From IMG/VR virus record IMGVR_UViG_3300010268_000001: a stretch of 64,000 bases of DNA; one strand, written 5' to 3'. The position numbers and the translations under genes are program-made. Under the pieces are notes generated by a model, which saw nothing but the letters and a program-made list of their open reading frames with translations, made no database searches and was not told the DNA's origin. This document shows, one piece after another, positions 24,101 through 46,003 of this stretch (position 1 is its first letter; every line of letters starts with the position of its first letter). Origin of the DNA: a virus.

Positions 24101-27100
24101 CTCTTCCTATGTTTCCATAATGATTGCTTTGTGGTGTCAGTGCTACCTGCGTCTTTTACCAGGTTGTCGTACAGACTGAATTGACCTGTTGTATCAGCAA
24201 CTAATACGTCGTTTATTACTCTTGCGTATAAGGAGTATCTTTCGTATTCTGTCAGGTCAAATACTATATCCTGAGGAGAAGTCGCGTTGGCAATATTTTT
24301 ATAGTGTTCTGTGTCTATAACGTCTGTGCCCAGTATACTGTTATATAAAGCTCCTTCATACGCCATGCGTGTTGCTTCTGTTTTCTGATTGAACGATAGT
24401 ATCTTTGCAAGACCGGAGTCATTAACGAATTTAGACAGCTTGATGTATAGCTTGTCTTTCGATAGGTATTCTTTGATGCGCTGCAGCTTCTCAGTTGCCT
24501 GAATCTGCGAATTGGCTACGCTGGCATCGCGTAACGACGTTGGAGTAGCGCCGACGTATACTGGATCTGCTCCGTACTTTGTCTTAAATCTCTTCATGAC
24601 TGCATTATAGTAGTCTACTTGGTTTGGGTCTGAATAGTTTCTAAGACCACTTTCTGGTCCTTTATTGTAGCATACGATTGCCCAGTCGAGCGGGTTTTCT
24701 TTTGCGTCTGCGTTACCAAGTTTGTCAGAGTGTGTAATTGCAAGGTTGTACTGCTGTGCGAAGAATTCTACCCCTCTGTATAGATTGTATTTCCAGTCCC
24801 ATGCTGCTCTTCTTGCCTGATCGAGGTTTTGTAGAATCCCAGACGTATACGCATTAAGCTGGGCGATACCTATGTCGTTTGTCTTGCTCCATATTGGAAT
24901 GCCATTACCATCAAACTGTTTCCATCCTGATTCAAGGTCGTACAGGGCTTTTAGGACGTTGACAACCTTTTCTCTTGTAATTTTCGGAGGTGATATCCTA
25001 TTATCGGAATACTTATACGTATACAGATAATTATTACCAGATGAGATAAGGTCAGCCTCTGACGGCAGATCTCTGAAGAATCCCGTATTATCATCACATA
25101 CAATTTCAGTTAGATATTGCACAAATTCCGCTTCCGTGGGATTTTTAAACCTGTTTGCACGTATACTCGCAATTACATTGTCTGATGCATTGTTAAGGTT
25201 AAACCAGCGCTTTATCTCTTCGTCTGTAGGCGACTTAATGACTGCTTCTTTAGTGATTGTGGCTTTTATTTTTTCAGGGACTTTTGGCCCCATTGAGCCA
25301 ACTGATGCTTTCACAATTTCGTTAGGATTTGTCTTTGCTCCCGGTATGGTCTTGGGATCGTATCTGGTTGTTTGTATGGCGTTGATATCTGTTGTGTACC
25401 CCCATCCGGTTTGTTTATCTGTTCTTTGCCCTACATAAACCTCATTTAAGTTCTGTTCAATCCATTCTAGTGTCTCGTCTGAATATATCGCGCTAGGCTG
25501 TGTCATGCCGCCATTAATCTGCTGTCCTCTTGTCGGAGTAACTTCAAACATTTCAAAACCGAGCTGATCTGTCATATAGATCGGCACTTGTCCGTCTTCG
25601 AGTATTGCATATACATAATCCCTAAATGTGTGCTCACACCTAATATAGAAATCAGGATCTACAAACTTGGCATTATCTGGATTAGGATAGTGCAGAAACG
25701 GCATACCATTAGGGTATGTTATCTTAAGATGTGGTAAAATCTCGTTTACTTCTTCATATGTTGGAAGTTCGAGATCAGGGTAGAGTTCAAGCTCCCTCAG
25801 TGTAAAATCTATAATGGCGTACTCAAAACCTGATTCATTTCTTCTTCTCCTTGAGTACGTATCTATAAAGCTTTGCAAGTCATACTCTAAACCACCATAT
25901 GCGGCCACCATGTCGAGTTCTTCTTTTACCCTCTGTGTCTTATCGAACGCAATAAACGATATATTGATTATAAAAGATTCTTTGTCGTTTTGCGATGTTT
26001 CCACTGAAAGCCTTTCTATCAGTACTGACTTAACTCCGAGCAACGAGGTAAGAGGTGTGTTTATTGTCAGTACACCAGAGGTTATTGCTATTCTATATTC
26101 TCTTGCAAGTCTTTGGGCTGTAGACATTAGCTGTCTAAATCTTTCTACCGCCTCCCTGTTCTTTGTTCTGATAGTAAGATCTATTATCGCATCAGAAGAA
26201 CCAAGGTGCTGGTATGTCGGGGTTTCCGCTGACAATATCTGGAGCGGAGTATATATATTATGCATCCGCGCAGCCATTGATTCTATATAGATGTCGTCTA
26301 TTGGAAACTCTGCAGATGGTATATCGGCTTCCGACAAATGAGCCATATAGTTTAGTTTTTCAAACTCACGTTCATAGTCAATAAAAAACAGGGATGTCGC
26401 TTCTTCTGCGTTTCCTATTATAGATACAAGCGTTTCGTCATACGGATTAATTGCATAGTAGTTCGTATTTCCGAGCTTGGTCTTAACACGTCTTTTATTG
26501 ACAGGAGAGTTTATCTGTATGATATACATTCCGCCACTATACGGCGCTTCATCATCGCCGAGATACTTCTCGTAAAGACTTGCAGGGCTACCTGCTTCAA
26601 GTGTATCCTCAACAACGCTGGCGGAGCGAACACCTGACACACCGGGCGAGCTTACAAATCTATTAGAAACATATTGCACAGTAATTGTAGACTTGGCAGT
26701 GAACGACACGTACAGGTTTGCTATACTACTGTCTTTAACCATAGACCATGCCGGGTCGCTAGAGAAGCGGTATGCCATATTATTGATGATATACAAAATC
26801 TCACGCATTTTATACATAATAAAGTATGCAGTTGCAGACCCGTGCATTGTACTCGTGCCAAAATAGGTGTATGCAACTATATTATAAAGCGCAACCGCAT
26901 ATTTTGCTGCTTTTGATGAATCGTTGCTTCTACCGCTAATAAGTTCCCTAACCTCTTCATATATCTCGGTGACATCAAATAAGCCGCTTGAGTTGTACAT
27001 TTTTGGATACGAAGATGCCGGATATCTTTTTAAAGCCTGCCTAAACCTGTCAAACTGCTCGCGTGCCATACCTATGTGTTCTGCTTCTTTAAGTATCTCA

Positions 27101-29334
27101 CCAACTGTCGTATTATCTTTTATATTGGCTTCTCTGAATAGTCTTGGATGTATCTTATTTACAAGGTCGTAGATCGCTTGCTTGCGTTCGTTTAGCACCG
27201 CCTCATCAGGGATTGAGAACGAGATGGTATCGTCAAGCCTGTTAAGTTTTGCGTAATATGATCTTTCGGGTTTATCAGACGGATTTAACGATCTTTGATA
27301 GAACCATCTGAATAACGGCCAGCAAAACGTAGATGCAAAGTCTTCTTCCTGCGGCATATAGACGGTATGATCAAATTGCAGGAGAGTTAATCTTGCTTGC
27401 AGGCATGACGGAAAACCTGGGACAGTTGCTATCTCCAGGTCTTTTAGTACAACAGCATATATATTAAAACGTTCGTTCAAAAGCTCATTCTCTATAGGCA
27501 GAAAAGGCGCTCTCTTGAACTGGGCTATCAGCGGACGCAGACCATTGCGATAATATGTCATTCCTTTTGGTCCGGGCATCTCATACCCGTTGACAGATTC
27601 AAGATTAGGGAAGAATAAATCTATTGTTATAACTGTATCGGAATATCCACTTTGTATTTGCATTGACGACTTGCTTCTCAGTGTCTGTAATCTTACATTG
27701 GACGCCTGCGTATCCACGTGAATTGATAACGGGGGAACAAGGAACATGCAGTCGCCTATTCTTAATTTAAACTGGTTGTACGGATCAAAACCCATCTGTT
27801 CATCTAGGCGGTTCCTGTCGTCGATCCTCATATTCTCATAGTCTTCGGTTTCACAGTCAGCGGGGACGAGGTTATAGTTATTGAGTTTAAATCCGCCTTC
27901 CCATAGGTCGTCTTCGTTGTCTTCAAAGATTTCATATCTATCAATCGAGATTACGCGCCCAGGATATAAGTCTATGTCGCCAATCTGATTTGTTAATTCA
28001 TTAACAGAAATGCCAAATTCAGCAGCTATACTGCTTAAAGTATCGCCAGGCTGGACGATATAGCTATCCACACCTGTTTTTACCTTATATTGTCTATTAT
28101 ACACTAATTCTACCTTATTGTCAAGCGCGTCAAGAGGCGTCTGAGGCAGCATGCTAAGCCCGTATTTATCAAGAAACGCCTGCATGCCGCTTGAATTTTT
28201 CTTTTCCAGCTCGTATTTCCTTATTTCTTCTACGCGCTTGTCGTAGTCAGGCGCATACAACCACCATGTATGGATGTCGAACTTACTTACTATGGTTCCA
28301 TTGCTATCCATACTATACTCGTATGTGGGCTCACCAAGGGCAAATTCAGGGAATCTCTTTGACTTGTTTGCTATGATTGATGTATTGACGCAAATTGTGA
28401 GCTCCTGATCATTTAAACCCGTATACCCTTGCGTGCTATCGAGATACACGACTCCTACAAGGCGGCCATCCTTGTCAAATTTAGGCTGGTCTCCGGGTAT
28501 GTTGTTGTCGTCGACCTCTGCAATTACGATAACCTTCTTGTTTAATACTAGCCCTTCAACAAACTCTCTTGCTTCTTCAGCAAGCGCACATATTTTGTCC
28601 ATTATGCCATTTTCTTCTGTTGGTGGCTCAAGGCCATGTCTTGCAGCCCACTCCATATTTTTGTTATACCACGATGTGTCGATATCCTTCTTAGTTTCGG
28701 GACACAGTACACCAACGAGACGCACTGTCAGAGGTCTTCCGACAAATTCGCTTCCAACCTTGTTCTGTTCTTCCACACTTATTCTTATGGTGTCACCGTC
28801 TGTTACACCGTATACCGTACCTTTGACCCACATATCTTTTGATGTGAGGACAGGCTTATAGTCATATTTAACAACATAATCGTCAAACGTGGGTCTTGGA
28901 ATATCAATAGGCTGCGTATGCGATCGTATAAGCTTTCTCGACTCTACTGTGATCTCTATCTTTATAATCATTATGCCGTTTTCGTATGCGGGGTTTGGCG
29001 AATATTCTATGTAACCGACAACAGGAAGGGATTCTGGAAAACCCCCTCCGTTGTCTATATTAAGAATAGACATGGCGTTTCTTAGTCTTTCGCCTATATT
29101 TACTGAATGAACAACAGCGTATGTTGTGCTGTATACCGGGTTGTCCTCAGTCTGCTCTGTAAACATTATCTTGAATTTATACATGTTCTTTGTAAGATCC
29201 ACATTATCGAGATAGCTCTCTGGAACATTAAGCGCTGTTGCTACAGAGGTGCGGACTGTCCCAGATTGCGAATTGTCTGCTCCATATGGTGTTACATCTA
29301 ATACTTGTATGTTAGCCCGCTTAATGCTTGCCAT
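21118..29334 (-). CDS. Giant baseplate hub / tail-associated lysin: SNase-like nuclease + LysM + tube/hub folds + SLT lytic transglycosylase (2738 aa)
   Basis: SNase: VYGVTDGDTIRI...VRLVGVLCPE...DKDGRLVGVVY (about 28360-28830). LysM: YIVQPGDTLSSIAAEFGIS (about 27945-28070). SLT: LYDLESGWKQ...DIGIAQLN...WAIVCYNKGP (about 24580-24965). Hub: PGARIHLRMGYG...VFNGVITEM and GELIVLGDPTAKPYDKFYI. Confidence 0.8.
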   Translation of the reverse strand: MASIKRANIQVLDVTPYGADNSQSGTVRTSVATALNVPESYLDNVDLTKNMYKFKIMFTEQTEDNPVYSTTYAVVHSVNIGERLRNAMSILNIDNGGGFPESLPVVGYIEYSPNPAYENGIMIIKIEITVESRKLIRSHTQPIDIPRPTFDDYVVKYDYKPVLTSKDMWVKGTVYGVTDGDTIRISVEEQNKVGSEFVGRPLTVRLVGVLCPETKKDIDTSWYNKNMEWAARHGLEPPTEENGIMDKICALAEEAREFVEGLVLNKKVIVIAEVDDNNIPGDQPKFDKDGRLVGVVYLDSTQGYTGLNDQELTICVNTSIIANKSKRFPEFALGEPTYEYSMDSNGTIVSKFDIHTWWLYAPDYDKRVEEIRKYELEKKNSSGMQAFLDKYGLSMLPQTPLDALDNKVELVYNRQYKVKTGVDSYIVQPGDTLSSIAAEFGISVNELTNQIGDIDLYPGRVISIDRYEIFEDNEDDLWEGGFKLNNYNLVPADCETEDYENMRIDDRNRLDEQMGFDPYNQFKLRIGDCMFLVPPLSIHVDTQASNVRLQTLRSKSSMQIQSGYSDTVITIDLFFPNLESVNGYEMPGPKGMTYYRNGLRPLIAQFKRAPFLPIENELLNERFNIYAVVLKDLEIATVPGFPSCLQARLTLLQFDHTVYMPQEEDFASTFCWPLFRWFYQRSLNPSDKPERSYYAKLNRLDDTISFSIPDEAVLNERKQAIYDLVNKIHPRLFREANIKDNTTVGEILKEAEHIGMAREQFDRFRQALKRYPASSYPKMYNSSGLFDVTEIYEEVRELISGRSNDSSKAAKYAVALYNIVAYTYFGTSTMHGSATAYFIMYKMREILYIINNMAYRFSSDPAWSMVKDSSIANLYVSFTAKSTITVQYVSNRFVSSPGVSGVRSASVVEDTLEAGSPASLYEKYLGDDEAPYSGGMYIIQINSPVNKRRVKTKLGNTNYYAINPYDETLVSIIGNAEEATSLFFIDYEREFEKLNYMAHLSEADIPSAEFPIDDIYIESMAARMHNIYTPLQILSAETPTYQHLGSSDAIIDLTIRTKNREAVERFRQLMSTAQRLAREYRIAITSGVLTINTPLTSLLGVKSVLIERLSVETSQNDKESFIINISFIAFDKTQRVKEELDMVAAYGGLEYDLQSFIDTYSRRRRNESGFEYAIIDFTLRELELYPDLELPTYEEVNEILPHLKITYPNGMPFLHYPNPDNAKFVDPDFYIRCEHTFRDYVYAILEDGQVPIYMTDQLGFEMFEVTPTRGQQINGGMTQPSAIYSDETLEWIEQNLNEVYVGQRTDKQTGWGYTTDINAIQTTRYDPKTIPGAKTNPNEIVKASVGSMGPKVPEKIKATITKEAVIKSPTDEEIKRWFNLNNASDNVIASIRANRFKNPTEAEFVQYLTEIVCDDNTGFFRDLPSEADLISSGNNYLYTYKYSDNRISPPKITREKVVNVLKALYDLESGWKQFDGNGIPIWSKTNDIGIAQLNAYTSGILQNLDQARRAAWDWKYNLYRGVEFFAQQYNLAITHSDKLGNADAKENPLDWAIVCYNKGPESGLRNYSDPNQVDYYNAVMKRFKTKYGADPVYVGATPTSLRDASVANSQIQATEKLQRIKEYLSKDKLYIKLSKFVNDSGLAKILSFNQKTEATRMAYEGALYNSILGTDVIDTEHYKNIANATSPQDIVFDLTEYERYSLYARVINDVLVADTTGQFSLYDNLVKDAGSTDTTKQSLWKHRKSKLQGYKLEDYVKEVIKEFKTTGTFDADKQYIIIKEGAAQYFFDTAVIAITKLEQNNYPYSSPYFKSHMIDSIKSSIDTRKIYEIADFENAEFAEIVIDSIDTQDAIRGAIISPDDIAILYRSAFKDIVEYDQRGRLVRAFPTYQMFIIDEGRWMAWHKLWDNFYGYNAIVSIDLCRDRKIAADTCVITLANIYHNLTTYDNEVSYGEWDYTLGDLIWGNKYAKQKVWRTIWDLPDDEILLARRDELNTLMLKPGARIHLRMGYGSNAYRLPVVFNGVITEMNAGEIVTIMAQGDGIELCNKLRVSPGDTNESGWFITKKTIEPRDFMCGLLTSKGSFLQNLANRVSGGVFYNSNPLGIVHFGVTSMPDAVLLRRWDMFNKFEDYGECGQNIYCSAGINTLSQWVYTEGTKKGQEFGFRWNWVDINGSGQGIGDEPNVRINLFDKTPWGVMQAFAHACPDYIVTVVPFEFRSTVFYGKPWWGVIDRYKYKYYYDTKYDMFVREPYSYERRALSQLKIYTDHFDIIKNDIKATDEFMYTNVIGVWDDGKKRTRVVQLDSDIAPEKQKTAIINLPYDSDVWYKNFWTQAKYAEAAAASALRDYVKDMYQGELIVLGDPTAKPYDKFYINDSYTDMAGLAEIQRVVHHFSMETGFVTSITPDCVSVIDDMQGISLNSWLAGTAIGAVMFTIGMLTKNTMWKKIWGSPIAALFRKAGKWTTNKIIVNVLGKMAGATDAELKTLSNLSDDLCSYLGKLINPNIDDAAKAAARAADYQQIKEGLSKILLKTKTVDGVVQDTILTKMAKIFGNIKDTVTTKGGVARYIDDLKIFKKSAIVTETGFYTKTLNRLWRGTSKLTKFTLKTAGEGTAAAIRGTSALVVRAGAAAGTAGLSLLIEIAIDIAISVLINSVVERHARWLKARQALTIIPLNYRGKPFVAGINGHKGVIAGEDCSALDKFLMGSGFGKTAINAIYAIFGITPPDYSVDSSTAQLRAFGM

Positions 29335-29348
29335 TTGTCTTGCCTCCC

Positions 29349-32300
29349 TTAGTACGCGTATCCCGTCTTTAATACGTTTGTAAACTGCATTTGCAGCCAG
29401 GATCTATCTATGGTTTGTCTGTTGTCCTCGGATACTATCTTAATATTCATGTTGATTCCTGTTTGTCTTATAACCTCGTCGGATATCATCTGGGCAACTT
29501 CTTCATTTGTCATTCCTCTGTTGACATTGCCTCTGATTACGACATTTATCTTTTCATATCCTGTTCCCTTTGGTGTTACATATGCTGTCGGGCCTGCCCC
29601 GGGTGGTGCACCAACAGCGTACTTAATAGGATTGACGTATGTGCCATCAGACGACGGAGCCTGATCTTCATGCGCTTCGACTGGCTCGTGTTCTATGTTC
29701 GGTCCTCTGAACATGCCAGAAATTGCCCATGCGCCCATCGCTATCATAGCGGCGGTTCCGAGTCCTTTTAATGTCGCTCCTTTAAATGCACTTCCTACCG
29801 CCTCAGATACTTCGTCTACCTTGCTTTGACCTATTGTATATAATGACTTGCCAGTAACATTGGATATGTTTTCTGCGTTGAACGCGCCGCCTATATCCCT
29901 TCCTTTGGAGGCAATATAACTCATTGCCTCTGGAACGAGTTTATCGACTTTTTCAATGAGCTTTTCATCACCAACGCCGAAGTGTAAAAACTTATCAAGC
30001 ACGTAGTAACCAAGGGGACTTGTTTTTGACGGATTGGATATGTCATAGCCAAACCGTATAGCATCAACAGCAGAGCCAGGTTCGGCAAGCGCAACGTTTA
30101 AGAAGCTGTCCCATATTACATTCTTTGATGTATGTCTTTGAATAAGGTCAAGCGCAGTCCTGATGTCTGCCTCTGTTAGGTCTCTTCCAAATACTGCACG
30201 TGTTATCTTGGCCTGGTCTTTAACACCACCCTGGAAGATCCATTCGCCGAGTTCGTTTTGCTTGAATACACCAAGTGTCTTTGATTGATCTATAATCTCA
30301 TCTATGTTAAAGTTTGATAAAGCTGCGTACAAGTTCTCGACTGCACCTATGTATTTTTTGAATTGCTCCGCTGTTGTGCCCTCTGTTAGCTGTTCACTTA
30401 ATCTCTTTGCAGAGATCGGCATCTGTTCTACAGCACTCATAAAGTAAGACGTTACAAGCCATGGGTTTGACGCAGCATCTTTAATCGCCTCTTGCGTCAT
30501 ACTGTTTACTGTTATTTCTGCCGCACGCCTATACCTTGTTGCCATGTTTGAGAATATACCAACTCTCTTTTGCAATCTTGCCTCTGTTCCGATTATCTCG
30601 TCATACATGCTTACCTTGGCTTTTAGTGTGTCCGAGCTCATTAACACATCATAAAGGTATTCGTCTGCGGCCAACTCTTCTATCTTTTGGTTTGCAATAA
30701 GTCTTGAATAGCGCTGCTCTGCTTTAAATAGATCTAATAGTTCCTGATTGGCCTGAGTGTCAATCATTGCGCCTTTTGCCTTGCTTCCAGCTATCTGGGG
30801 CAATAACCATGCATGGGTATCGCCGTCCATGTCGGCGTTCTGACTTATCTGTGTGCCCAATGTAACCCATACATTGCCTTTGAGCGAAACCGGAAGGCTG
30901 CTTTCTGCTTCTTCTGAGAGAACTTTGACCATGTTTACCTGCATTGTGCTTACGTCTTTTACGGGCCACCTGATGCTTATCATTGGTATGCCTTCTTTTT
31001 CCGCCATCTCCATGATCTTGTCTGCATCCCTGACGCCACTTAACATATCCATCAGGTCATATCTCGACATAACAGCATAACCTTCATCAAGTGTGTTTGC
31101 GTATTTATATATATATGAGTTAGGATCTATTGTTCTGTACTTAAATATACCTGAATGAGATACTCTATGCGACAAGGCATTCTCGGCGATATATCCTTTT
31201 GAATGCATTATAGCCCTGCCGTATTCCTGGTGCAGGTTTTCAACAGCTCTCTGGAGTGAGTCTTTTGCCTCTGCTAACGCAATATCGTCTGTAGCAGCAT
31301 TATAATCAAAGATAGCGTTAAACAGCTGTCTTTGGGCTTTTTGTATTTCATTTAGATGAACTTCGCCCTGTTCGCCTCTTAATTTAAGCGGAGCTATCAG
31401 GGCCTTGTCAACCGTATATGATCTGCCCTTGGCATCGCTCATGGTAACTGGTGTCGGAAGCTCAAGGAAGAAAGGCTTTCCATCAAACAGGCCAGGATCG
31501 ACGATTGTTCCTCTAAGTTCGCTTCTTAGATACCCTCTTGATTCAGTGGGCATGAGTCTTAACTGTGAGAATAGTATATCTCCTTTTTGCAGTTGTGGCT
31601 GATTCACGACGCGTACCGTCGGTATATCTTCAAGAAAAGGTCTGTGCTGACCGCTGGCTGCGGCAAGCGCTTCTCTTATTATTGCTCCTTCTTTTAAGAA
31701 GCTACTAGACTCCTGAAACGCTGCACCCTCCATTAGTTCTAACAGCCTGTTTGTCTGCACTCCGTGTAGCCTGCTTCTGTTATACATCATTTCAAGCTCA
31801 CGTAGGCCTATCTTTACAAACTCTCCTTCTTCGCCTACGCCACCCATATAGTCTGCAACGTCGGATCTTATAAATCCCATAAGACCTGTTAGAACTTTAT
31901 GGCCAGTCTTTGTTGTTATTATGTTTTTACCGCCAAGCTTTTCTGTTACTGCATTAATATATTCCTGAACGTTAATATCGTATATCATCCTGGTCGGAAA
32001 AACAAGTCTGTACGAATCGTTTATTGCCTCGATCCTTAAACCTCTTTTTCTTAGCTCTTTTACAGGATCCTTGCCCATCGCCCTCTCGAGGACTTCTTCT
32101 ACTGCTGCCTGTATCTGTTCTTTTGTTATCTTACCCACAGTCTGCATTTCGTACATCATCATATTAAGCTGTGAGGCAAGTAAATCTCCGGGCAGCTTCT
32201 TTACTCCGACATTCACTATTGCTTCTATGTCGGCGTATTCTTCGCCAAATAGGCGTATTATTTCTTCTTTTGTAAGAAGTCCTACAGTAAACTTGTTACC

Positions 32301-35300
32301 ACTGTCAAAGCCTTGGAACTTTGTACCTATTGTTGTTGGTATAAATTGGTCAATGATGATATCGTATGTTCCTTTTTCTTCGTTTATACGGACTTCTCTT
32401 ACGATTGCATCGAACTTCTCTTCATAAATGCGCTTTCTTCCTCCTGCTTCTGCAATTACGTCACCTTTTCTTATAACACCTCCGGTGGCTGCCAGTTCGT
32501 CAAGCATTGATACAGGTACTTCATCGGGTTCTAAGTGTATTACTTTTTTCTGGAATACATCAAATGCCTTGGCGACGTCAGCCCTCATTAACATCATGTC
32601 GTCGTGCACAGTTGGTCTTCTTATCTGCGGAAGCTTTTCTACTTCTTCTCTGTTTACTATTGCTGCTATATCCTTATCAGTCATAAATGCAGTTCTAAGA
32701 TTCAGTGCAGTAATAGCCGGCTCTGCCCTGAAAGATTCTTCAGTGCCCATGTATATCGTGGTTAATCTTTTTAATGTAGCGTCGTCCAAGTTTGCGTTCG
32801 GGCTAAGCCTGTAATAGTTTAGCATCTGTCTTGGGTTTTCGCGTCCTGTATCGCTATAGAATCCAAATACGCCAAAAATCCTCGGATCATACTGTTCAAC
32901 ACTTAGATACCCAGATTGCAGCCTTTCACCCTTTAATGCATTGTCACCGTATTTTAGTCCAAGGGTGTCGCGCAGTATCTCTGATATTGCAGAACCCATT
33001 TTGTATTCTAGAGATGTTTCGTCAAGACCTATTCTTTTTACTATGTTGTAGCTACTGCCGCCGTATCTTACGGAGCGTATAAGAAGGTTACTGTCAAGAC
33101 CGTGTTCTTTAAATCTGTTAAGACCGATTGCTTTGCCAAGCTCAGCCCTTGTAGCGCTATATACCAGGCTATTGTAATCAATATAACCAGCTCTTGAAAG
33201 ATTTGCTTTTCTCGTGCCTGCGACAGTATCACTTATTAGCTCTCTCGAGTAGCGCGAGCCTGCAGGAACACCCTGTACTGCATGTCTGATTCTTCTTGCA
33301 GCAAGATCTGCAGCTTCACTATAACGTTTATCTTTAATGAGCTGTGATATTTCATTTATTGTGTCTTTGTACGTCAACGTGTCAAACAGCACATGCTGAG
33401 TTGTATTTAGTCTTGCCTTGCGCGTATTATAGTCAATCACTGTAGGAACAAGCATATTGACACGCGGCAAGTTATCTATATTAATAAATCCTTGGTCGTC
33501 TACTAGCGGGATAAATATACGTACGGCAGAACCGCGCATTGTTGTGTCGACAACCTGTGTTGCGGTGCTAAGGTCGTATAGCGCAAGCTCAAGACCAGGA
33601 CTCTTAGAAGATCTCGAGATCCATGCGTTTAGCCCGATACCCTTGCTTTCATACTCTCTTGCGAGCTTTCTTACCTGCTCCATTAAAGGTGTCGGGCCCA
33701 GGTTTTGCATATCCATCGCGACTTTTTCGGAAAACAGCGATACGTGCTTTGCAAGCTGTCTATCTATGATCGCAAGTTTTTCTTCGAAGTCCGGGTCGAT
33801 AATGGCGAGATTACTCTCTATCTTAAAATACCTGCGTGCATTGGCTACTACACTTGATATCGTGCTGTTATCCTTTAACTCTCTTATCGCTTTGGCACTA
33901 AGCGTTCTTGCGGTAAGTGATTCTTGGTCCTTTATTACGTTGTAGGCCTTCTTTTCGCCGACTTCTTCGATAATGTTTGTTGCGACGTTTAGTGCTATAT
34001 CATGGACGCCTCTTGTAGGATCGTCATGATAAGGAAGTACGTTATACATAGTCCTGATTACCTTTGATGCTTTATTACGCTCTATCGTACCTTCAGATGA
34101 AAGCTGCGCAACAATACCTCTTAGACGATATACGGCATCAGTTAAATTGCCTCCGTCTTCAAGGGCTATACTCATAAGACTATTGGCAAGCGTGGACGAC
34201 GTACGTGCATCTACCGTCCTATATATCTTTGATACAGGGTCCCATATCTGAGCTTGCCTGTAAAGATCAGGCAGAACCACATCTTCAACGTGTTCTCCGA
34301 GCCTATCTTTAAACAACGCCAATGCTACCGCTTTTTGGTCATTACTAAGCGCTTTAAATCTGGCATCTTCTTTTAGAGTCTTTAATATCTCATATTCTGA
34401 TTTTATACGCGGATACATGTATGCGAACTTTTCTGCCTGTGATTGGGTTAGGATGCCTTCATCAACAAGTCTTTGCGTAGCTGCGCTTGAGAGTTTACCT
34501 CCCCTCATCCGAGCTTTTATTGGCGAGCTCTGTATGTATTCATACGCGTGCATGTATCTTTCAAATAGCTTCGGTGAATCCTTTGTGCCTCTGAACATGC
34601 CGGCATATTCACGACGCGCTCTGGTTTGCATGATATATTGTCTTGTTTCTCTGTGTCTTACTGCAGAATCCATCATGACGAAGTTCTGCTGGATTGCGTT
34701 CTGTAGGTCTCTTACGTTTTCGTATGCAAGCACAGAAACTACGTCGTCATCTATGTTATGCAGCACGACACCGTAATACTTTTTTCCAGAGTATTCTGTT
34801 TCGAACTCGTTTACTATACGATGCAAGGCATGTCTGTATGTAGCAAGATTTTGATATGTTCTTGCCTTCCATCCATCTTCGGTCATTTCATATGCCATAT
34901 TAAGTGGCGTTTCAGGAGTTCTTGTTATACTGCCAATAGAAAATAGCTCTTTGACATCCTTGCCAAATACAGTTTTGGATACATCTATATCTTTAAACAC
35001 GTTTCTGCGTCTTAACATGTAGTCAAGCATATTTACTGTGCCATATACGTCTTCTGCACTTACGTGTTCTAAGAACTCGTATCCTGTCAGTGAGCGAGAC
35101 AAGGTTCCAAGGGTCGACGGACCCTGTATTGGGGCTTTTCCTTTCTTGTGCAGCTTATGCAGTGATAACGGATCTTGCACTACAGATCTTAGCCATACAT
35201 ATGTATCAAGATGCTGCGCCTTTCCTTCAAAGCCAAATATTTGAGCAATGTCTTTATTGCCAAACGAGCGCTCGAGAACAGGCACGTCCGCAGCCAAACC

Positions 35301-36164
35301 GTTATGCCAGATAAATAACGGATCTTTTTCGAGCTTGTAGCCTTTTTGCATCATGGCACGATTTATGGCAGCGCCAAGATCGGCCCGATCTATGGCATGT
35401 GATGCAGAGTCGGGTTTTAGGTTATTGAATCCGTCTTCAATTAAGTCTATGTATTTATGTATGTTATATCTCGTAACTATAGGTCTTGCTGTCTTTCTTG
35501 CTACAATACCGGTCGGGTCTATTGTATTCTTTCCTGCATAGTTTATAAGATCTGCAAGTGTTCTTAATTCGTCATCAGTCAGCTTCGGCAGCATGCCGCG
35601 TGGAGTGTCTTTTACTGTGTTTATAAGTCTTGCTATTTCATCTGCTTCGTTCTTCGGAAGCCTTACAGCGAATGATATGACGTTATCTTTGGATAGGTTC
35701 TTTATAAGCCCGTTTTCTATTTCCACGGGCATGATGGCAACTTCAACTGGCGACACAAATGACATTTTACCGCCAGCAAGCCATTCAACGTCAGCAGCCC
35801 AAATCGTTCCCTTTTGCATGCTCCTTATCCTATGGAGTGCTTCTGCCGTATACTGAGCAGGGTTCTTCCATGGGTTTAGGTTTGTTACCGACGTGGCAAT
35901 ATTGTATCTTCCTAGTACTACATTACGTGCATTTAAAATGTCGTTAATGACCTCTGGGGGCAGGATTGACTCACTGCCCCCTGCTATATTGCCACGGTTC
36001 TTGTGCAGATATCTAAGACTGCTTATGCTTGGCTGTGCAGGCTTTATAGCGCCGCCTGTTCTTTCAAAGATATTAAATTCGTCATATATCCTTTTTGCGA
36101 CCTGTGCGCGCCTTTCTGCCTTTTTAAGTTCTCTTTCAATGTAATCGGCCATCTTTTGCTTCAC
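29349..36164 (-). CDS. Single-chain two-barrel (beta/beta'-like) RNA polymerase with N-terminal DEDDh exonuclease; probable virion RNAP (2271 aa; likely start ATG 36152)
   Basis: Motifs occur in canonical order: NLRTAFM...HDDMML, IRKGDVI, IGTKFQGFDSGNKFTVG, KIGLRELEM (beta-like); then SLQRAVENL...SKGYIAENALSHRVSHSG, IRWP, NADMDGD (beta'-like). N-terminal DVE / HNGLAAD / LDT / HVSAED is a DnaQ-like exonuclease. The gene lies inside the tail operon. Confidence 0.85.
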   Translation of the reverse strand: MKQKMADYIERELKKAERRAQVAKRIYDEFNIFERTGGAIKPAQPSISSLRYLHKNRGNIAGGSESILPPEVINDILNARNVVLGRYNIATSVTNLNPWKNPAQYTAEALHRIRSMQKGTIWAADVEWLAGGKMSFVSPVEVAIMPVEIENGLIKNLSKDNVISFAVRLPKNEADEIARLINTVKDTPRGMLPKLTDDELRTLADLINYAGKNTIDPTGIVARKTARPIVTRYNIHKYIDLIEDGFNNLKPDSASHAIDRADLGAAINRAMMQKGYKLEKDPLFIWHNGLAADVPVLERSFGNKDIAQIFGFEGKAQHLDTYVWLRSVVQDPLSLHKLHKKGKAPIQGPSTLGTLSRSLTGYEFLEHVSAEDVYGTVNMLDYMLRRRNVFKDIDVSKTVFGKDVKELFSIGSITRTPETPLNMAYEMTEDGWKARTYQNLATYRHALHRIVNEFETEYSGKKYYGVVLHNIDDDVVSVLAYENVRDLQNAIQQNFVMMDSAVRHRETRQYIMQTRARREYAGMFRGTKDSPKLFERYMHAYEYIQSSPIKARMRGGKLSSAATQRLVDEGILTQSQAEKFAYMYPRIKSEYEILKTLKEDARFKALSNDQKAVALALFKDRLGEHVEDVVLPDLYRQAQIWDPVSKIYRTVDARTSSTLANSLMSIALEDGGNLTDAVYRLRGIVAQLSSEGTIERNKASKVIRTMYNVLPYHDDPTRGVHDIALNVATNIIEEVGEKKAYNVIKDQESLTARTLSAKAIRELKDNSTISSVVANARRYFKIESNLAIIDPDFEEKLAIIDRQLAKHVSLFSEKVAMDMQNLGPTPLMEQVRKLAREYESKGIGLNAWISRSSKSPGLELALYDLSTATQVVDTTMRGSAVRIFIPLVDDQGFINIDNLPRVNMLVPTVIDYNTRKARLNTTQHVLFDTLTYKDTINEISQLIKDKRYSEAADLAARRIRHAVQGVPAGSRYSRELISDTVAGTRKANLSRAGYIDYNSLVYSATRAELGKAIGLNRFKEHGLDSNLLIRSVRYGGSSYNIVKRIGLDETSLEYKMGSAISEILRDTLGLKYGDNALKGERLQSGYLSVEQYDPRIFGVFGFYSDTGRENPRQMLNYYRLSPNANLDDATLKRLTTIYMGTEESFRAEPAITALNLRTAFMTDKDIAAIVNREEVEKLPQIRRPTVHDDMMLMRADVAKAFDVFQKKVIHLEPDEVPVSMLDELAATGGVIRKGDVIAEAGGRKRIYEEKFDAIVREVRINEEKGTYDIIIDQFIPTTIGTKFQGFDSGNKFTVGLLTKEEIIRLFGEEYADIEAIVNVGVKKLPGDLLASQLNMMMYEMQTVGKITKEQIQAAVEEVLERAMGKDPVKELRKRGLRIEAINDSYRLVFPTRMIYDINVQEYINAVTEKLGGKNIITTKTGHKVLTGLMGFIRSDVADYMGGVGEEGEFVKIGLRELEMMYNRSRLHGVQTNRLLELMEGAAFQESSSFLKEGAIIREALAAASGQHRPFLEDIPTVRVVNQPQLQKGDILFSQLRLMPTESRGYLRSELRGTIVDPGLFDGKPFFLELPTPVTMSDAKGRSYTVDKALIAPLKLRGEQGEVHLNEIQKAQRQLFNAIFDYNAATDDIALAEAKDSLQRAVENLHQEYGRAIMHSKGYIAENALSHRVSHSGIFKYRTIDPNSYIYKYANTLDEGYAVMSRYDLMDMLSGVRDADKIMEMAEKEGIPMISIRWPVKDVSTMQVNMVKVLSEEAESSLPVSLKGNVWVTLGTQISQNADMDGDTHAWLLPQIAGSKAKGAMIDTQANQELLDLFKAEQRYSRLIANQKIEELAADEYLYDVLMSSDTLKAKVSMYDEIIGTEARLQKRVGIFSNMATRYRRAAEITVNSMTQEAIKDAASNPWLVTSYFMSAVEQMPISAKRLSEQLTEGTTAEQFKKYIGAVENLYAALSNFNIDEIIDQSKTLGVFKQNELGEWIFQGGVKDQAKITRAVFGRDLTEADIRTALDLIQRHTSKNVIWDSFLNVALAEPGSAVDAIRFGYDISNPSKTSPLGYYVLDKFLHFGVGDEKLIEKVDKLVPEAMSYIASKGRDIGGAFNAENISNVTGKSLYTIGQSKVDEVSEAVGSAFKGATLKGLGTAAMIAMGAWAISGMFRGPNIEHEPVEAHEDQAPSSDGTYVNPIKYAVGAPPGAGPTAYVTPKGTGYEKINVVIRGNVNRGMTNEEVAQMISDEVIRQTGINMNIKIVSEDNRQTIDRSWLQMQFTNVLKTGYAY

Positions 36165-39100
36165 CTACTCGGAAAACAAGAATGCTAAGTTATTGTTGAT
36201 TTCTCTCTTAACATCCTCTCTTCTGTCGTACATCATATTCACGTCGATATTAAGTAGGTCTGAAGGATCATCCGTTTCTTCGGTGAATATCTTTATATCG
36301 ACATCTTCTATTCCTGCGCCTGATAGAACTTTTTTGAGCGCTCCTATATCTATTGCATTGGGCAGTAACTTTCTTATTCTCGGTAGTCTGGGTGCATTCT
36401 TTGCGAATTCGACATCATCGGGCCAGAATCCAAATTCGCCGATGTCGAGCGCAGTATTTTGAACAAACTTAACCTTTATTGCTTCAAGAGAGACCCCAGG
36501 TTTCCATCCTATCCAGTCCGGCGAGGGCAGATAATGGGTAGCGAAGTATTCTTCAAGCGACGGCTTTCTGTCTAGTTTGAGTCCCCACTTAGCCTGATAA
36601 AATCTTCTCTGGTTCTTGGGTATGATCCTCAGTATCTCTTCGCGCTCTTCTGGCGTAGCTGTCATAAAGTACCTGAAGAATGGCCTGTCTTTCTTTGGTA
36701 ACGCTCTATATATAGTACGGAAGTCCCCATGCGGATCTGCTCCATAAAGCGTTGCCTGGTATTCTGTCCTATATTGTAGAGCGCGAATAGTATATGGTCC
36801 TGCGGCAAGCAGTATCCTATCGCTTGCTATATCCCTTAGTCTCGCGTTTATTGCGCTAAGGTTTTCTTTTTTTGATTCTTCGTCGTCAGAGTAGCTGACT
36901 TTAAGCCAGCGCTTAACATTTTCAAGGCGCCTTCTTTCGGAAGCAGTCTTAGCGCCTCTTTGCTCTGACATCTGTGCGATTGATTCTGGATCTATGCCTT
37001 CATATTCTATAGCAAGTTCCCTTGCTTTTTCGTATAATCCTCTATATTTGACGTATTTTAATATATCGAAGTATTCTTCTATTTCTCTTTCGATACGCCT
37101 TCTTCTTGGAATCCATGTGTAGTCAAAGTCTCCGGTTAGCCTTCTTCCGGCTTCATAGAATGCTCTTAAGCTTGCAGGTATACCTCCTATTGCTGCGCCT
37201 ATTATTGCTCCTATTTCTTTTGAATGTTTTGCTGCTCCAAATAGTGCGCCAAGTGCTGCTCCTGCAAGTGTAGAAACTAATGGTCTGCCAGCGGTAAGTT
37301 TATTTATTGTAGGCACAATCCAATCTCTAACAGGATGCGACCACGACTGCCAGTCTTTACCGTAGAGCATTTGTCTCTTATAATGCTCAAGAGGAGACCT
37401 GACTTTCAAGAACTTAGTATGGAATGGCGTATCAAGATGCGCAAATGCCTCCCAGAACTTACCTAAGGTGATTGTGTTTTCTCTGTACAGAGCATTGACT
37501 GTTACTGCGTCAGTGTCATCGAACTTGCCTTTAACGGCTCTTTCCCCGCCTATGCCAAACAGGAATCCGCCATAAGTCTTTCTTGCAAGCTTAGCCTGCA
37601 AAGGATCTCCCCATACGTCATATACGACCGCCGGCATTGTCTGCATCGTATCGTCGTTATAACGCATTAACGGGTCCTCTGCTATACCTATTCTTATCTT
37701 GTTGCCGGGTGTAATATATCTTGATATATTTGCGAGTACTTCACCATAATACTCTGATGTTTTTGCAGGAAGCTTAATACCGGCCATCCTGATAGCGACG
37801 CCGGGATATTCTTTTGTTGTAAATGTAATCGGGTCAATTACCCTTTCGATAGTAACAGTCTTCTTCTCGATTTGGTCTGCATACTTAAACTTATACGGAT
37901 ATAGATCGTATTTTTCCTTCCTCTGGCTGACCATCTCGCGGATTCTCTGAGCATCTTCATAGTCTCTGTCAGAGATCAGTTTATCCTCATGCATCATGGT
38001 TACTACTTTACTGTAATACTTATATTGCTCAGACCATGGTGCAACGTCAGCCAAAATCTTAAATCTGTCGAGTGCTCCGTACCTTCCAAAAATCGGGTCT
38101 GGATGTAGCCTGTTTATCGCTTCGTATCCGGGACCAGGAAGCCTTGCTTCGCCCATCGGTATCTTCACATATGGGTCGCCATGCTTGAAGTCAAGGAAAT
38201 ACTCAAGGCCCGGCATCCAGTCAGGCATCTGGTTGCGGATCGGATTATACTCTCTTATCTGTCTTCTTCTGTGAGGAAGAAATCTACGATATATTTCGGA
38301 AAGCTCCCCGCCTAGACCGCCAAGACCAAGATCCCAGAATGCGCGTTCAAGTGACGTCATTCTTGATGAATCTTGTAGTTGTACATGAGGAGAAGTAGCG
38401 TCTTCTATACCAAAGAAAGTATTGGCAAGGAATCCATATATACCGCCTATTTCTGTTAGCGAGTACGCTGTCTCTCCTAGGCGGTACGCAACAGAGTTAG
38501 GATCCATTGCCTTTTCAAGACTTTCTACATAGAAATGGTCTCTTAATGAAGCTACACTTCTTCCGTCAATAGGTCTTAAGTCTGCATATGATGCGTACGT
38601 CTGGTTAATAGCAGCTATTCCGCCATAACCACTACCGACGGTATATGTGTAGCCTCCGCCTCCATACTCGCCTCCTACGCCGTATCCAATTCCATAGCCC
38701 TCTCCTTCGCCTTCTTCTCGTTCAATGACACCTGGACCTATTCCGTAGCCTATGCCGCCTTCGGCCCCTTCAGGCGATACAGCTGCGCCGCCGGTACCGA
38801 ATGCAACGGGCTGTATACGCCCACCGGGATAAATCATTAGAATAGCACCGCGGTTAGTCTGTTCGGCGAAGGCTTTATACATATCATTTATTTCTTTTAG
38901 ATAGCTTTCATGTGCCCTCTTAAGATCGGGATGCTTTCTTGGAGGTTTAAAGATAAAGCTTAATGGTATATCTATGAGCGGACCTACTATCGGGATTTGT
39001 CTGAATGGAGTTCCTCCGCTCACTGGATATGGCCTTGTTTCTCTATGCTTACGTTCATAATGATACGGATCGAGCAGCGTCCTTATTCCGAAAAGATTCC

Positions 39101-42100
39101 TCGGGTTCGGGAACCAGGTATATCCCCAGTATTCTGCTTCTGAACCATAGAGGACATCTGTATACTTGGGTTCGCCCATTACTCTCCTATACCATGACGG
39201 AGCGAAGTATTCAATTCTGTCTCCGTACCATGGTGTATTAGAACCTATATCCCAGAATCTTCCCTTGCGAATAGGCTCGTAGCCTTTTTCATAGTAGTAC
39301 TTCTTTTCTTCGTAGCCAGACGAATCGCCAATTAATCCGAATGTACCATACTTGAGAGCCAATCCTATTGGGTTTTCAGATAATAGGTTAAGTCCCGGAA
39401 ATGTTCTCCTTAACTCCTGGCTCATCCAGTTAAGACCTGTTATGTCTTTGAAGCGCTGCACATCCAGCGTCATTTGTGCATACGCCCTGGCAAACGTCTG
39501 GTTGGGTTTTTCTCCACTTGGATTAAGATTGCCAAGCTCGAAGTTGATATATCTTAATCCGTAGAAGGTTGCAAGAGGTAGGAGTATACGCCTTGTAAGC
39601 AGGTTCCAAGCTATATCCTGAGCAGAACCCATGTTTTTATTGGAAAGACCAAGACCTATTGATGCTATACCTTCTTGGAGTCTATAGAAATAATGGTAGA
39701 ATCCAAAACTTGTCGTGGTGAGTCTTTCGGGATTGAATCTGCCTGCTCTATATTTCTTCGAGCCAAAACCAATCTCAGCTAGCGTGTCAAGGCCCCAGGA
39801 TTTTAGCTTGCGCCCAACTTCTCCTATCGTTCCAGAGGTAATCTCACGTATTCCGCCGCCAGACTTTATTATCTCGTTTATATCCTCTATAGTTTGTCTG
39901 GTTCTTGATATTACGCTGCCTCTTCGTATCGGTATATAATCTTCAAAGTAGAATCTCGGGCGCTCACCAGGGCCCACACCAAGAACAGGGTTAGCCTTTT
40001 TTATCATCTGTTCAAGGTGCTCTCTTATTATTTTTTGCGATTCGTTCGCTGGTTTAGTAAGAAGTCCTAGAAACTTCTCAGGTTCTGTAAGACGACCAGA
40101 TACGCCGAGATTCATCAAATCGCTTAATGTATAAAGATTAAGTATCTCGTCGGCTTGTTTTTCAGTAAGAACACCAGACTCGAGCAGATCCTTTACCAAA
40201 GAACCAACAGTTACACCTTTATCTATACTCTGCGCACGGTGTAACAGCTCCATATGTAATGTTTTCTGAGCCTGGCTTATATTTGTTATAAGCTCTGTTT
40301 TATTCGATGTGATGGATTCGAGAAAATCAGGAAGTGCAGTGTCACGGCCCCTCTTTGCTGTGCGGGCTATGCTATGTAGTGACTCTGGATCTTGTATGTA
40401 TTGTTCAAGTATTCTCTCGAACTCACGTCGTGTCCCGGGTCTTAAGCTGTCGTCCTGTATGAGCTTATATATAGCGCGGAGAGTACCTTCTTCGGTCGTG
40501 TTCTCCATTAAGATTTGATATATATCTGGATCTATATAATCCTTAAGAGTTTTGATTGTATCCCTTGACAGGCTCGTGGTCATATTGTCCACGGTATTCA
40601 GGAACTTGCTGTATGCTTTGTTTAGAAAATCTAGTACTTCTTCTTCTGTCTTGCCAAAATTGCCCTGCTCTATATTATACCATATATTTCTATCCCAGTC
40701 AAGGTTCCAGAATTTCGTAACGGCAGAGAACTTTCTCTTTAAGGCACTTTCATATTCTTGGTTACCTATATCGTAGATTTCTTTTAGATATTCAATGAGT
40801 GTACTCGGCTCTCTTGCTTCCCTTTTGGTGTATCCAAGTATAGGTGCGAGCTCCCTTTGGAATAGGCCAGTCCTCGGAGAAGCAAGAGTAATATTTTCTG
40901 CTACTACCTGACCTTGTCTATTGATAATGCTACCGCCGGAGTAGTAGTAGTCATCTATTGGTAAGTCTCTGCCTATTAACTTAATAATTGAGCCTATCTT
41001 TTCTCTTTGAAATACATGGAATGGTATGTCCTCGGCGGCCTCTCTTCCAAATACAGTAAGAAGTCTGAACGGCCTGATATTTAACAGTGGTATCTGGAAA
41101 TTTTCAGATAACGTCTTTAATGTTTTAGATGGAACCGTACGCAGGAATCTAAAGTCAAATACTTCTCCTGTTGCTCTGTTAATGAATACTAGCGGGTCAA
41201 CTATCGCATCTTCCATACCAGGTATTGTGCTTAGTGCTCTGGGCCTTACCATCGTTCTTTCAATTTTGCCGCCAGCTTTTGGAATATCTTTTGTGAGGCT
41301 TGTATAATCAAATATGCCCATCTTGACTGCGTCACTAAGAGTAAGAAGGTCGTAGTCAGGAAACATACTTTGTATTATTTTTGTTCCTGCTGTCGTGCTC
41401 TTCTGGAATCTAAGTGCAGCCTGGTCGCTTGCTTCTTTTATGACCTTTACTCTTTGTGCGATAGCTTCCCTGTTTTCTCTGATAAAGGCTTTTCTGTCGC
41501 TATATTTGATGAGAGTTTCTCTTAGATCGCTAAGCCCCGACTTTACTGCAGGGATGTCGTGGAATCTTGATGTTATCTCAAAGTGCTCCATTGCACTCTT
41601 CAAAGCTTTTTCTATTGCTTTTTCCTTGTTATACTGCGCTCCTTTGCCTTGTATGACTTCTCTTTCAAACCCAGTCGTAATGAGTCTCTTGTCTTCTTTT
41701 AACATCTTCTCTATCGCTTTGAAGAGTTCTGGGTTTTCTTTGGCCCATTCTTTTTCAGCAACATCAGACAGTACCTTTTCAAGTCTAAAGTTTAATATCT
41801 CTCTTTCAGCGATCTTCCTGTGTGAATCGGCAAGTTTGCTAAACCACTTTTCTATACGCGTAGGCTCGCCGCTTAGCGTAGGTTTACCAGCCATTTTGCG
41901 TGCCTCTGTAACCGCATGTGTCCTAAAAGACTGACGCATGTTAGCCTCGAGTGTTTCCTGCGCTCCACCCAATAGGGTCTTAAATACACCTTCTTCGCGG
42001 AATGTCTTGTTAAGGCCAGACAGATAGCTGGATGTGCGCGAGAGCGTCTGATTCATCTTGCTTACACCTTCAGACAGGAGCCCTTCTTTGTCAAGGTATT

Positions 42101-42239
42101 TAAGACCTTTATAGGCAGCATAACCACCGGCTGCTATAAGGCCTATCCTACCGACAGTCTTTATGGCATTCGATAAAAAAGAATGACGAGGATACTCGTC
42201 GTCGCCGTTGAGGTACTTGCGGTATTCGTTGTCTGCCAT
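36165..42239 (-). CDS. Tape-measure-like / ejection protein with degenerate SNase-like OB domain (2024 aa)
   Basis: Immediately follows the tail chaperones (canonical TMP position). Mostly helical, with Gly/Ala-rich hydrophobic helices, a Gly-Tyr-rich linker (about 38620-38800) and an OB-like TVTIERVIDPITF...IRMAGIKLP segment (about 37600-37865). Confidence 0.6.
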   Translation of the reverse strand: MADNEYRKYLNGDDEYPRHSFLSNAIKTVGRIGLIAAGGYAAYKGLKYLDKEGLLSEGVSKMNQTLSRTSSYLSGLNKTFREEGVFKTLLGGAQETLEANMRQSFRTHAVTEARKMAGKPTLSGEPTRIEKWFSKLADSHRKIAEREILNFRLEKVLSDVAEKEWAKENPELFKAIEKMLKEDKRLITTGFEREVIQGKGAQYNKEKAIEKALKSAMEHFEITSRFHDIPAVKSGLSDLRETLIKYSDRKAFIRENREAIAQRVKVIKEASDQAALRFQKSTTAGTKIIQSMFPDYDLLTLSDAVKMGIFDYTSLTKDIPKAGGKIERTMVRPRALSTIPGMEDAIVDPLVFINRATGEVFDFRFLRTVPSKTLKTLSENFQIPLLNIRPFRLLTVFGREAAEDIPFHVFQREKIGSIIKLIGRDLPIDDYYYSGGSIINRQGQVVAENITLASPRTGLFQRELAPILGYTKREAREPSTLIEYLKEIYDIGNQEYESALKRKFSAVTKFWNLDWDRNIWYNIEQGNFGKTEEEVLDFLNKAYSKFLNTVDNMTTSLSRDTIKTLKDYIDPDIYQILMENTTEEGTLRAIYKLIQDDSLRPGTRREFERILEQYIQDPESLHSIARTAKRGRDTALPDFLESITSNKTELITNISQAQKTLHMELLHRAQSIDKGVTVGSLVKDLLESGVLTEKQADEILNLYTLSDLMNLGVSGRLTEPEKFLGLLTKPANESQKIIREHLEQMIKKANPVLGVGPGERPRFYFEDYIPIRRGSVISRTRQTIEDINEIIKSGGGIREITSGTIGEVGRKLKSWGLDTLAEIGFGSKKYRAGRFNPERLTTTSFGFYHYFYRLQEGIASIGLGLSNKNMGSAQDIAWNLLTRRILLPLATFYGLRYINFELGNLNPSGEKPNQTFARAYAQMTLDVQRFKDITGLNWMSQELRRTFPGLNLLSENPIGLALKYGTFGLIGDSSGYEEKKYYYEKGYEPIRKGRFWDIGSNTPWYGDRIEYFAPSWYRRVMGEPKYTDVLYGSEAEYWGYTWFPNPRNLFGIRTLLDPYHYERKHRETRPYPVSGGTPFRQIPIVGPLIDIPLSFIFKPPRKHPDLKRAHESYLKEINDMYKAFAEQTNRGAILMIYPGGRIQPVAFGTGGAAVSPEGAEGGIGYGIGPGVIEREEGEGEGYGIGYGVGGEYGGGGYTYTVGSGYGGIAAINQTYASYADLRPIDGRSVASLRDHFYVESLEKAMDPNSVAYRLGETAYSLTEIGGIYGFLANTFFGIEDATSPHVQLQDSSRMTSLERAFWDLGLGGLGGELSEIYRRFLPHRRRQIREYNPIRNQMPDWMPGLEYFLDFKHGDPYVKIPMGEARLPGPGYEAINRLHPDPIFGRYGALDRFKILADVAPWSEQYKYYSKVVTMMHEDKLISDRDYEDAQRIREMVSQRKEKYDLYPYKFKYADQIEKKTVTIERVIDPITFTTKEYPGVAIRMAGIKLPAKTSEYYGEVLANISRYITPGNKIRIGIAEDPLMRYNDDTMQTMPAVVYDVWGDPLQAKLARKTYGGFLFGIGGERAVKGKFDDTDAVTVNALYRENTITLGKFWEAFAHLDTPFHTKFLKVRSPLEHYKRQMLYGKDWQSWSHPVRDWIVPTINKLTAGRPLVSTLAGAALGALFGAAKHSKEIGAIIGAAIGGIPASLRAFYEAGRRLTGDFDYTWIPRRRRIEREIEEYFDILKYVKYRGLYEKARELAIEYEGIDPESIAQMSEQRGAKTASERRRLENVKRWLKVSYSDDEESKKENLSAINARLRDIASDRILLAAGPYTIRALQYRTEYQATLYGADPHGDFRTIYRALPKKDRPFFRYFMTATPEEREEILRIIPKNQRRFYQAKWGLKLDRKPSLEEYFATHYLPSPDWIGWKPGVSLEAIKVKFVQNTALDIGEFGFWPDDVEFAKNAPRLPRIRKLLPNAIDIGALKKVLSGAGIEDVDIKIFTEETDDPSDLLNIDVNMMYDRREDVKREINNNLAFLFSE

Positions 42240-44225: not shown

Positions 44226-44231
44226 TTATTA

Positions 44232-45935: not shown

Positions 45936-46003
45936 CTCCTTGTCCTCCCGTATTATGTATATAAGGGCGGAAATAAATCCGCCCATCAATTAACATTGCA
46001 TAA

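Follow-up and report, generated by a model that had tools for sequence, protein, structure and literature searches.

A predicted DEDDh exonuclease fused to a single-chain two-barrel RNA polymerase core in the tail module of a contractile-tailed phage

In the usual view, cell-type RNA polymerases (RNAPs) depend for correction and rescue solely on their own active site, assisted by the Gre/TFIIS factors. Injected single-chain two-barrel RNAPs of phages are a known kind of enzyme: gp96 of the Thermus phage P23-45 is a virion protein that is fused to the tape measure and serves in pre-early transcription (Chaban et al. 2024, PMC10770324), and gp66 of phi14:2, a crAss-like phage, is packaged in the virion, flanked by other giant ejected proteins, and probably delivered for transcription of early genes (Drobysheva et al., bioRxiv 10.1101/2020.03.07.982082). 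Here we analyse a gene in a 64,000-nucleotide stretch of viral DNA (IMG/VR record IMGVR_UViG_3300010268_000001; hereafter the window), the product of which (Exo-RNAP) carries, N-terminal to an RNAP core of this kind, what is almost certainly a DnaQ-like exonuclease. The initial annotation of the window, made from the sequence without database searches, proposed this fusion and knew of no described precedent for it; both modules are confirmed on one chain by sequence and by predicted folds, and our literature searches likewise turned up no exonuclease-RNAP fusion. The gp96 paper (PMC10770324) mentions neither 'exonuclease' nor 'nuclease', the gp66 paper (bioRxiv 10.1101/2020.03.07.982082) does not mention 'exonuclease', and both the family and its exonuclease fusion appear to be undescribed in the literature.

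The C-terminal part of Exo-RNAP is, by its sequence and its predicted fold, a single-chain two-barrel (cell-type) RNAP core. The catalytic triad lies within NADMDGD (aa 1776-1782), and Rpb1 R446 and P448, with which the R-x-P of the beta'-type barrel corresponds (Table 1), are listed as universal (PMC2919709). The same chain has another barrel, which is of the beta type and contains conserved basic residues, and all 50 of the listed fold matches of the core (500+ at E<=0.001) are RNAP beta or beta' chains. The protein is like gp96 in being a single-chain two-barrel RNAP with an equivalent motif (D-F-D-G-D in gp96) encoded by a tail-module gene tied to the tape measure, and like gp66 in being a giant single-chain two-barrel RNAP (gp66 has ~2,200 aa). 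Nevertheless, it has no sequence match with gp96, as judged by single-sequence and profile searches of PDB chains, and none with gp66; gp66 resembles QDE-1, whereas the window core best matches the multisubunit beta/beta' chains. The host phages also differ, that of gp96 being a siphovirus and the virion of the gp66 phage being podovirus-like, whereas the window phage is a contractile-tailed myovirus.

The case for the exonuclease (aa 113-392), which leaves us in little doubt that the domain is an intact DEDDh (DnaQ/RNase T-type) 3'-5' exonuclease, combines its motifs with its predicted fold. Re-translation finds the ExoI, ExoII and ExoIII motifs and D320 at the residues and coordinates given in the initial annotation, i.e. 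in WAADVEWL (aa 122-129), FIWHNGLAADVPVL (aa 284-297, containing N288 and D293), HLDTYVWLR (aa 318-326, with D320) and EHVSAEDV (aa 366-373). The further claim that all catalytic residues are present also stands, with D125, E127, D293, H367 and D372 being in place and invariant in 15/15 sequences of our alignment, which comprises 14 distinct full-length proteins and one Moorella homologue. Conservation among homologues had been proposed as a check, and 14/14 full-length relatives keep both the domain and its catalytic residues and have the exonuclease fused to an RNAP core. Nine positions are invariant across the alignment (Q104, D125, E127, E141, N288, D293, D320, H367 and D372) and make up the majority of the domain's invariant columns; all but Q104, which lies N-terminal of the domain, are positions that define DnaQ-like enzymes. 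The motif positions stay invariant at 15-46% identity, the mean pairwise identity being 24-26% for the exonuclease domain and 24-30% for the polymerase lobes. From its sequence, the domain looks catalytically competent.

A family-specific helical insert separates ExoI from ExoII and has near-invariant residues of its own, i.e. R201, D205 and L206 in the motif R-T-L-x-D-L; it is without counterpart in the known DEDDh enzymes among the matches. The 105-aa insert and a score below the RNase_T threshold distinguish the domain from described DnaQ-like DEDDh enzymes (Pol III epsilon, the PolC exonuclease, TREX1/2, RNase T, Orn, ERI1/3'hExo and T4 DexA), as does its context, since the latter are free enzymes or DNA polymerase subunits, whereas the window domain is one part of a 2,271-aa protein encoded in the tail module.

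An AlphaFold2 model of aa 60-480, computed on the family alignment, has a mean pLDDT of 83 and a pTM of 0.76. In a Foldseek search of the PDB it gave 41 matches at E<=0.001, and 50/50 of the listed matches are DEDDh enzymes (ExoI, TREX1/2, RNase T, Orn and DexA); the prediction of an RNase H-like DEDDh fold, on which the initial annotation had made its assignment depend, is thus borne out by a model that matches the DnaQ-type. A family profile run against PDB sequences gave weak (E ~1e-3), exact-register matches to TREX1-like and PolC exonucleases over ExoII, the DT position and ExoIII. In BFVD, family members ranked top, followed by viral DnaQ, DexA and helicase-fused DEDDh domains, and the ESM Atlas gave leads only, to small phage DnaQ-like or oligoribonuclease-like clusters, for the exonuclease domain and nothing usable for aa 481-1030. 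The window domain is strongly divergent: Pfam PF00929 (RNase_T) does not detect the window protein and finds one relative at E 0.07, and single-sequence searches of Pfam, PHROGs and PDB chains with the window protein returned nothing significant, such that standard annotation by these three routes overlooks the family.

A phmmer search with aa 60-480 against 1.84 billion representative proteins matched only 12 proteins, ten of 2,267-2,475 aa and two shorter ones that are probably fragments, and two members that are more distant came to light when a profile of the polymerase region was used. A word-indexed homologue search with aa 90-430 recovered the query itself and nothing else, a whole-protein search of IMG/VR found no relative, and megablast of the gene against phage records gave no match. 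Searching phage records with the window protein by tblastn led to three cultured Bacillus phages, KLEB27-3 (gp034), WH1 (gp095) and Edson, with the C-terminal domain alone being matched in WH1 and Edson; the homologues in these isolates are annotated merely as 'structural' or 'hypothetical'. A DnaE-type (Pol III alpha) polymerase is encoded in all three of the cultured relatives OM634661.1, LC597490.1 and OR602862.1, the match in WH1 being in two pieces. Across those three genomes Pfam RNase_T, a model that misses the family's divergent domain, finds no epsilon-like exonuclease besides a tail-protein domain of Moorella phage MTATph1. The proposal that the domain is the phage's sole DnaQ, serving the DnaE polymerase, was rejected; it rests on the absence of RNase_T matches, which is weak evidence, and since RNase_T also overlooks the family's own domain in the isolates, the absence of other copies means little.

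MTATph1 (OR602862.1, 30512-37868) has an exonuclease of this type without a polymerase. In the same slot of its tail module, CDS0027 encodes a protein of 1,309 aa, in which an 840-aa N-terminal part of unknown nature is followed by an exonuclease domain homologous to that of the family (hhalign probability 96.9%, E 1.7e-10, 247 columns). This domain reaches 24.2 bits with Pfam RNase_T, for which the cut-off is 24, and matches PHROG 192, 'DNA polymerase exonuclease subunit', at E 5e-11; because it both passes RNase_T and is linked to the family by hhalign, it provides a sequence bridge from the divergent family to canonical DnaQ-like exonucleases. After CDS0027 the gene is split by an IS21-type transposase/ATPase (IstB) pair, and the next open reading frame (ORF), CDS0031, encodes the family's hydrophobic helix and C-terminal domain. 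No D-x-D-G-D motif was found in the neighbouring MTATph1 genes, and the RNAP profile finds nothing genome-wide. The presence of the exonuclease in the same slot without an RNAP implies that the nuclease may work independently of the polymerase, although the meaning of this case is limited because the gene is broken by an insertion sequence (IS) element.

The protein is probably carried in the tail and injected, as suggested by its conserved gene position, its hydrophobic helix, its C-terminal domain and the two precedents, gp96 and gp66. In relatives with flanking DNA, the gene order is constant, with a ~2,000-aa protein, the Exo-RNAP gene and another giant protein following one another. In the WH1 annotation, the sheath and tube genes are followed by those for two tail chaperones and then by genes for a virion protein of 2,025 aa, the homologue (2,515 aa) and another virion protein of 2,320 aa, which places the gene between tape measure and hub, immediately behind the former; in the isolates the homologues are labelled 'structural protein' or 'virion structural protein'. 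The C-terminal domain, which is more conserved than any other part of the chain (Table 1), probably anchors the protein in the tail.

Like P23-45 gp96 and crAss gp66, Exo-RNAP would travel in the tail and enter the cell ahead of the DNA, where the injected polymerase would transcribe the first phage genes. The exonuclease may act in cis where the nascent RNA has its 3' end, removing misincorporated or backtracked 3' nucleotides, and might thereby keep the few injected polymerase molecules from lasting arrest, as a built-in substitute for rescue of the Gre/TFIIS type. DEDDh domains fused or tightly bound to a polymerase normally edit the 3' end that is being extended, as with Pol III epsilon, PolC and nidovirus nsp14, and two-barrel RNAPs backtrack and need rescue. 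Because of this habit of polymerase-linked DEDDh domains, the tendency of two-barrel RNAPs to arrest and the small number of injected molecules, we tentatively prefer a role in rescuing or editing the 3' end of the transcript to one in processing the ends of phage DNA. The presence of the fusion in every full-length relative, with the exonuclease being as conserved as the polymerase lobes, is consistent with this reading. It is possible, albeit doubtful, that the protein represents the first two-barrel RNAP with its own dedicated 3'-5' exonuclease for transcript editing or arrest rescue, one that replaces Gre/TFIIS-assisted cleavage in a tail-injected enzyme.

Several points weigh against a role in transcript editing. 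The sequence affinities lean to DNA exonucleases (TREX1-like and PolC, and PHROG 192 for the Moorella homologue), the exonuclease lies ~700 residues upstream of the polymerase core, and the MTATph1 genome encodes homologues of the exonuclease and of the C-terminal domain but no RNAP core. Further, gp66 and gp96, the characterised virion two-barrel RNAPs, are without a reported exonuclease. Fidelity is of little importance for a handful of early transcripts, and two-barrel RNAPs already possess an intrinsic cleavage activity. A docking prediction of the exonuclease with the two polymerase lobes (as three chains) gave no answer, with a score of 0.00 and no controls, and counts neither way.

The main alternative, to which we give a rather low but real probability, is that the exonuclease processes the ends of the entering phage DNA, resecting the 3'-ended strand at the leading end of the genome. 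Such resection would either expose a single-stranded template or promoter for the polymerase or leave terminal repeats with complementary tails for circularisation or recombination; 3'-5' resection of terminally redundant phage DNA yields annealable ends. The position of the gene would place the protein beside the first DNA to enter, and the affinities with DNA exonucleases and the retention of the exonuclease without an RNAP in the Moorella homologue point the same way, as does the report that transcription by gp66 is efficient on single-stranded or denatured DNA but poor on double-stranded DNA (bioRxiv 10.1101/2020.03.07.982082). The polarity is, however, awkward, as a 3'-5' exonuclease spares the 5'-ended strand, on which the polymerase would run outward to the genome end, and resection, if unchecked, would cost the phage the genes at its leading end; the window covers neither the ends of the genome nor the orientation of the early genes. 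The Moorella variant with its exonuclease and no RNAP would also suit an injected weapon that, as infection starts, degrades 3' ends of host DNA or RNA or else linear oligonucleotides with a signalling or priming role, the fusion serving only for co-delivery. The proteins that phages eject often string together unrelated enzymes as modules (in P23-45 gp96, an RNAP is combined with a peptidase and a tape measure), the adjoining hub protein has an SNase-like domain, and T4-type DexA and oligoribonucleases are among the structural neighbours of the exonuclease. We nevertheless consider this improbable, given the few molecules per virion, a circular chromosome without free 3' ends, the fact that cyclic signalling nucleotides are no substrate for a 3'-5' exonuclease, and the lack of any match to known anti-defence nuclease families.

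Replicative DNA polymerases typically have proofreading exonucleases dedicated to them, and PolD is a two-barrel enzyme that makes DNA, from which it might be argued that the core of Exo-RNAP synthesises DNA with the DEDDh domain as its proofreader, i.e. that it is a phage analogue of archaeal PolD/DP1. We regard this as very improbable, because the full D-x-D-G-D triad with its N-A-D context matches the RNAP type, whereas in PolD two aspartates are retained; the 50 structural matches listed are RNAP beta/beta' chains throughout and include none of PolD, and the cultured relatives have their own DnaE-type DNA polymerase. Equally slight is the chance that the domain is a catalytically silent relic retained as a structural, folding or packaging module. 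The divergence that hides the window protein from Pfam RNase_T would be compatible with such a relic, which has no direct support, and the invariance of five catalytic residues and four further motif positions at the identities given above argues against it.

With respect to our favoured reading, i.e. transcript rescue or editing, the functional model is nidovirus nsp14 ExoN acting with the nsp12 RNA-dependent RNA polymerase (RdRp), in which a DEDDh domain edits the 3' end of the RNA that a viral polymerase has made. The nidovirus enzymes differ in that the RdRp is of the palm type, the two activities reside on separate proteins and the virus itself is an animal RNA virus, and the homology that we claim is confined to the DEDDh fold. 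To our knowledge, PolD with DP1 is the only described two-barrel polymerase having a dedicated 3'-5' exonuclease partner. DP1 is, however, a calcineurin-like phosphoesterase and a separate subunit, and PolD makes DNA and has two catalytic aspartates (PMC4996933, PMC7281927). If editing does occur in Exo-RNAP, it would parallel the proofreading of DNA polymerases and coronavirus ExoN. The conserved fusion raises the possibility either that a separate editing nuclease evolved for two-barrel RNAPs, or that an injected polymerase needs a DNA template prepared by a nuclease; either of these, if true, would add to knowledge of what happens in the first minutes after a large Firmicutes phage infects its host. 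As the cultured Bacillus phages KLEB27-3, WH1 and Edson carry the gene, the question is directly testable, with MTATph1 as a natural exonuclease-only comparison.

The features of the locus are collected in Table 1, with residues numbered from the GTG at 36164; the ATG used by gene callers on identical contigs is four codons later. The ORF is translated without interruption over 2,271 aa with no internal stop, and the same protein, 100% identical, occurs on three other metagenomic contigs (<=93 kb), where it is called as 2,267 aa from the ATG.

Table 1. Coordinates of the Exo-RNAP gene, its predicted domains and motifs, and the adjoining genes in the window.
Feature	Coordinates	Strand	Remarks
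Whole exonuclease-RNA polymerase gene	29349..36164	-	2,271 codons from GTG 36164; likely real start ATG 36152, giving 2,267 aa
Predicted DEDDh 3'-5' exonuclease domain, aa 113-392, helical insert included	34989..35828	-	
ExoI motif D125-x-E127	35784..35792	-	invariant in 15/15 sequences; on first strand of model (strand 59-71)
Family-specific helical insert, ~105 aa, aa 170-275, between ExoI and ExoII	35340..35657	-	helices at model residues 112-214
ExoII motif N288-x4-D293	35286..35303	-	invariant; PDB profile search aligns it to ExoII of TREX1-like and PolC exonucleases
D320, the 'DT' position conserved in DnaQ-like exonucleases	35205..35207	-	invariant; same position aligned in TREX1-like chains
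ExoIII motif H367-x4-D372, the 'h' of DEDDh	35049..35066	-	invariant; aligned to H-x4-D of TREX1-like chains
Beta-rich domain after exonuclease, aa 404-480	34725..34955	-	strands at model residues 364-420; G465 and D472 invariant
Two-barrel RNA polymerase core, aa 1060-1940, beta-like then beta'-like lobe	30345..32987	-	
R1732-x-P1734 of beta'-type barrel	30963..30971	-	invariant; equivalent to Rpb1 R446/P448 (PMC2919709)
Catalytic triad D1778-x-D1780-G-D1782	30819..30833	-	D-x-D-G-D in 14/14 full-length relatives
Gly/Ala-rich hydrophobic helix, aa 2134-2152	29709..29765	-	from translation; position conserved
C-terminal domain, aa 2190-2271	29349..29597	-	40% mean pairwise identity, the maximum of the chain; common to WH1 gp095/Edson and Moorella CDS0031
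Upstream neighbour, 2,024-aa tape-measure-like protein	36165..42239	-	after sheath, tube and chaperone genes here and in WH1; ~2,000-aa protein upstream in every relative
Downstream neighbour, 2,738-aa hub-like protein with SNase-like and LysM domains	21118..29334	-	domain search and synteny

The genes of the window, all of them on the minus strand, make up the structural module of a large uncultured phage with a contractile tail; in the direction of transcription there are genes for a portal, a major head protein, a sheath and proteins resembling the tube, then three giant ORFs (2,024, 2,271 and 2,738 aa) and finally baseplate genes. The tape-measure and Exo-RNAP genes share a frame in the window (junction 36150-36170), in WH1 and in one further relative, and are out of frame in KLEB27-3 and two further relatives. 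Stop-codon read-through giving a chain in which the tape measure is fused to Exo-RNAP was considered and rejected by coordinate arithmetic, as a frame shared in only 3/6 relatives means that such a fusion is no conserved feature.

In the hub-like protein (21118-29334), the SNase-like domain (aa 203-300) scores 20.7 bits, just below the Pfam cut-off, and a LysM domain is also present; a small M15 peptidase-like ORF follows the hub-like gene at 20374-21105. Past the sheath gene, three successive ORFs (216, 585 and 258 aa; 43449-46654, minus strand) each match PHROG 9206, 'major head protein'. They occupy the position of tail tube genes, and probably either this label is wrong or the ORFs are tube paralogues. 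Adjoining the portal gene, a 296-aa ORF (60453-61343, minus strand) matches PHROG 7339, 'DNA repair exonuclease' (E 4e-41), and represents a second nuclease inside the structural module.

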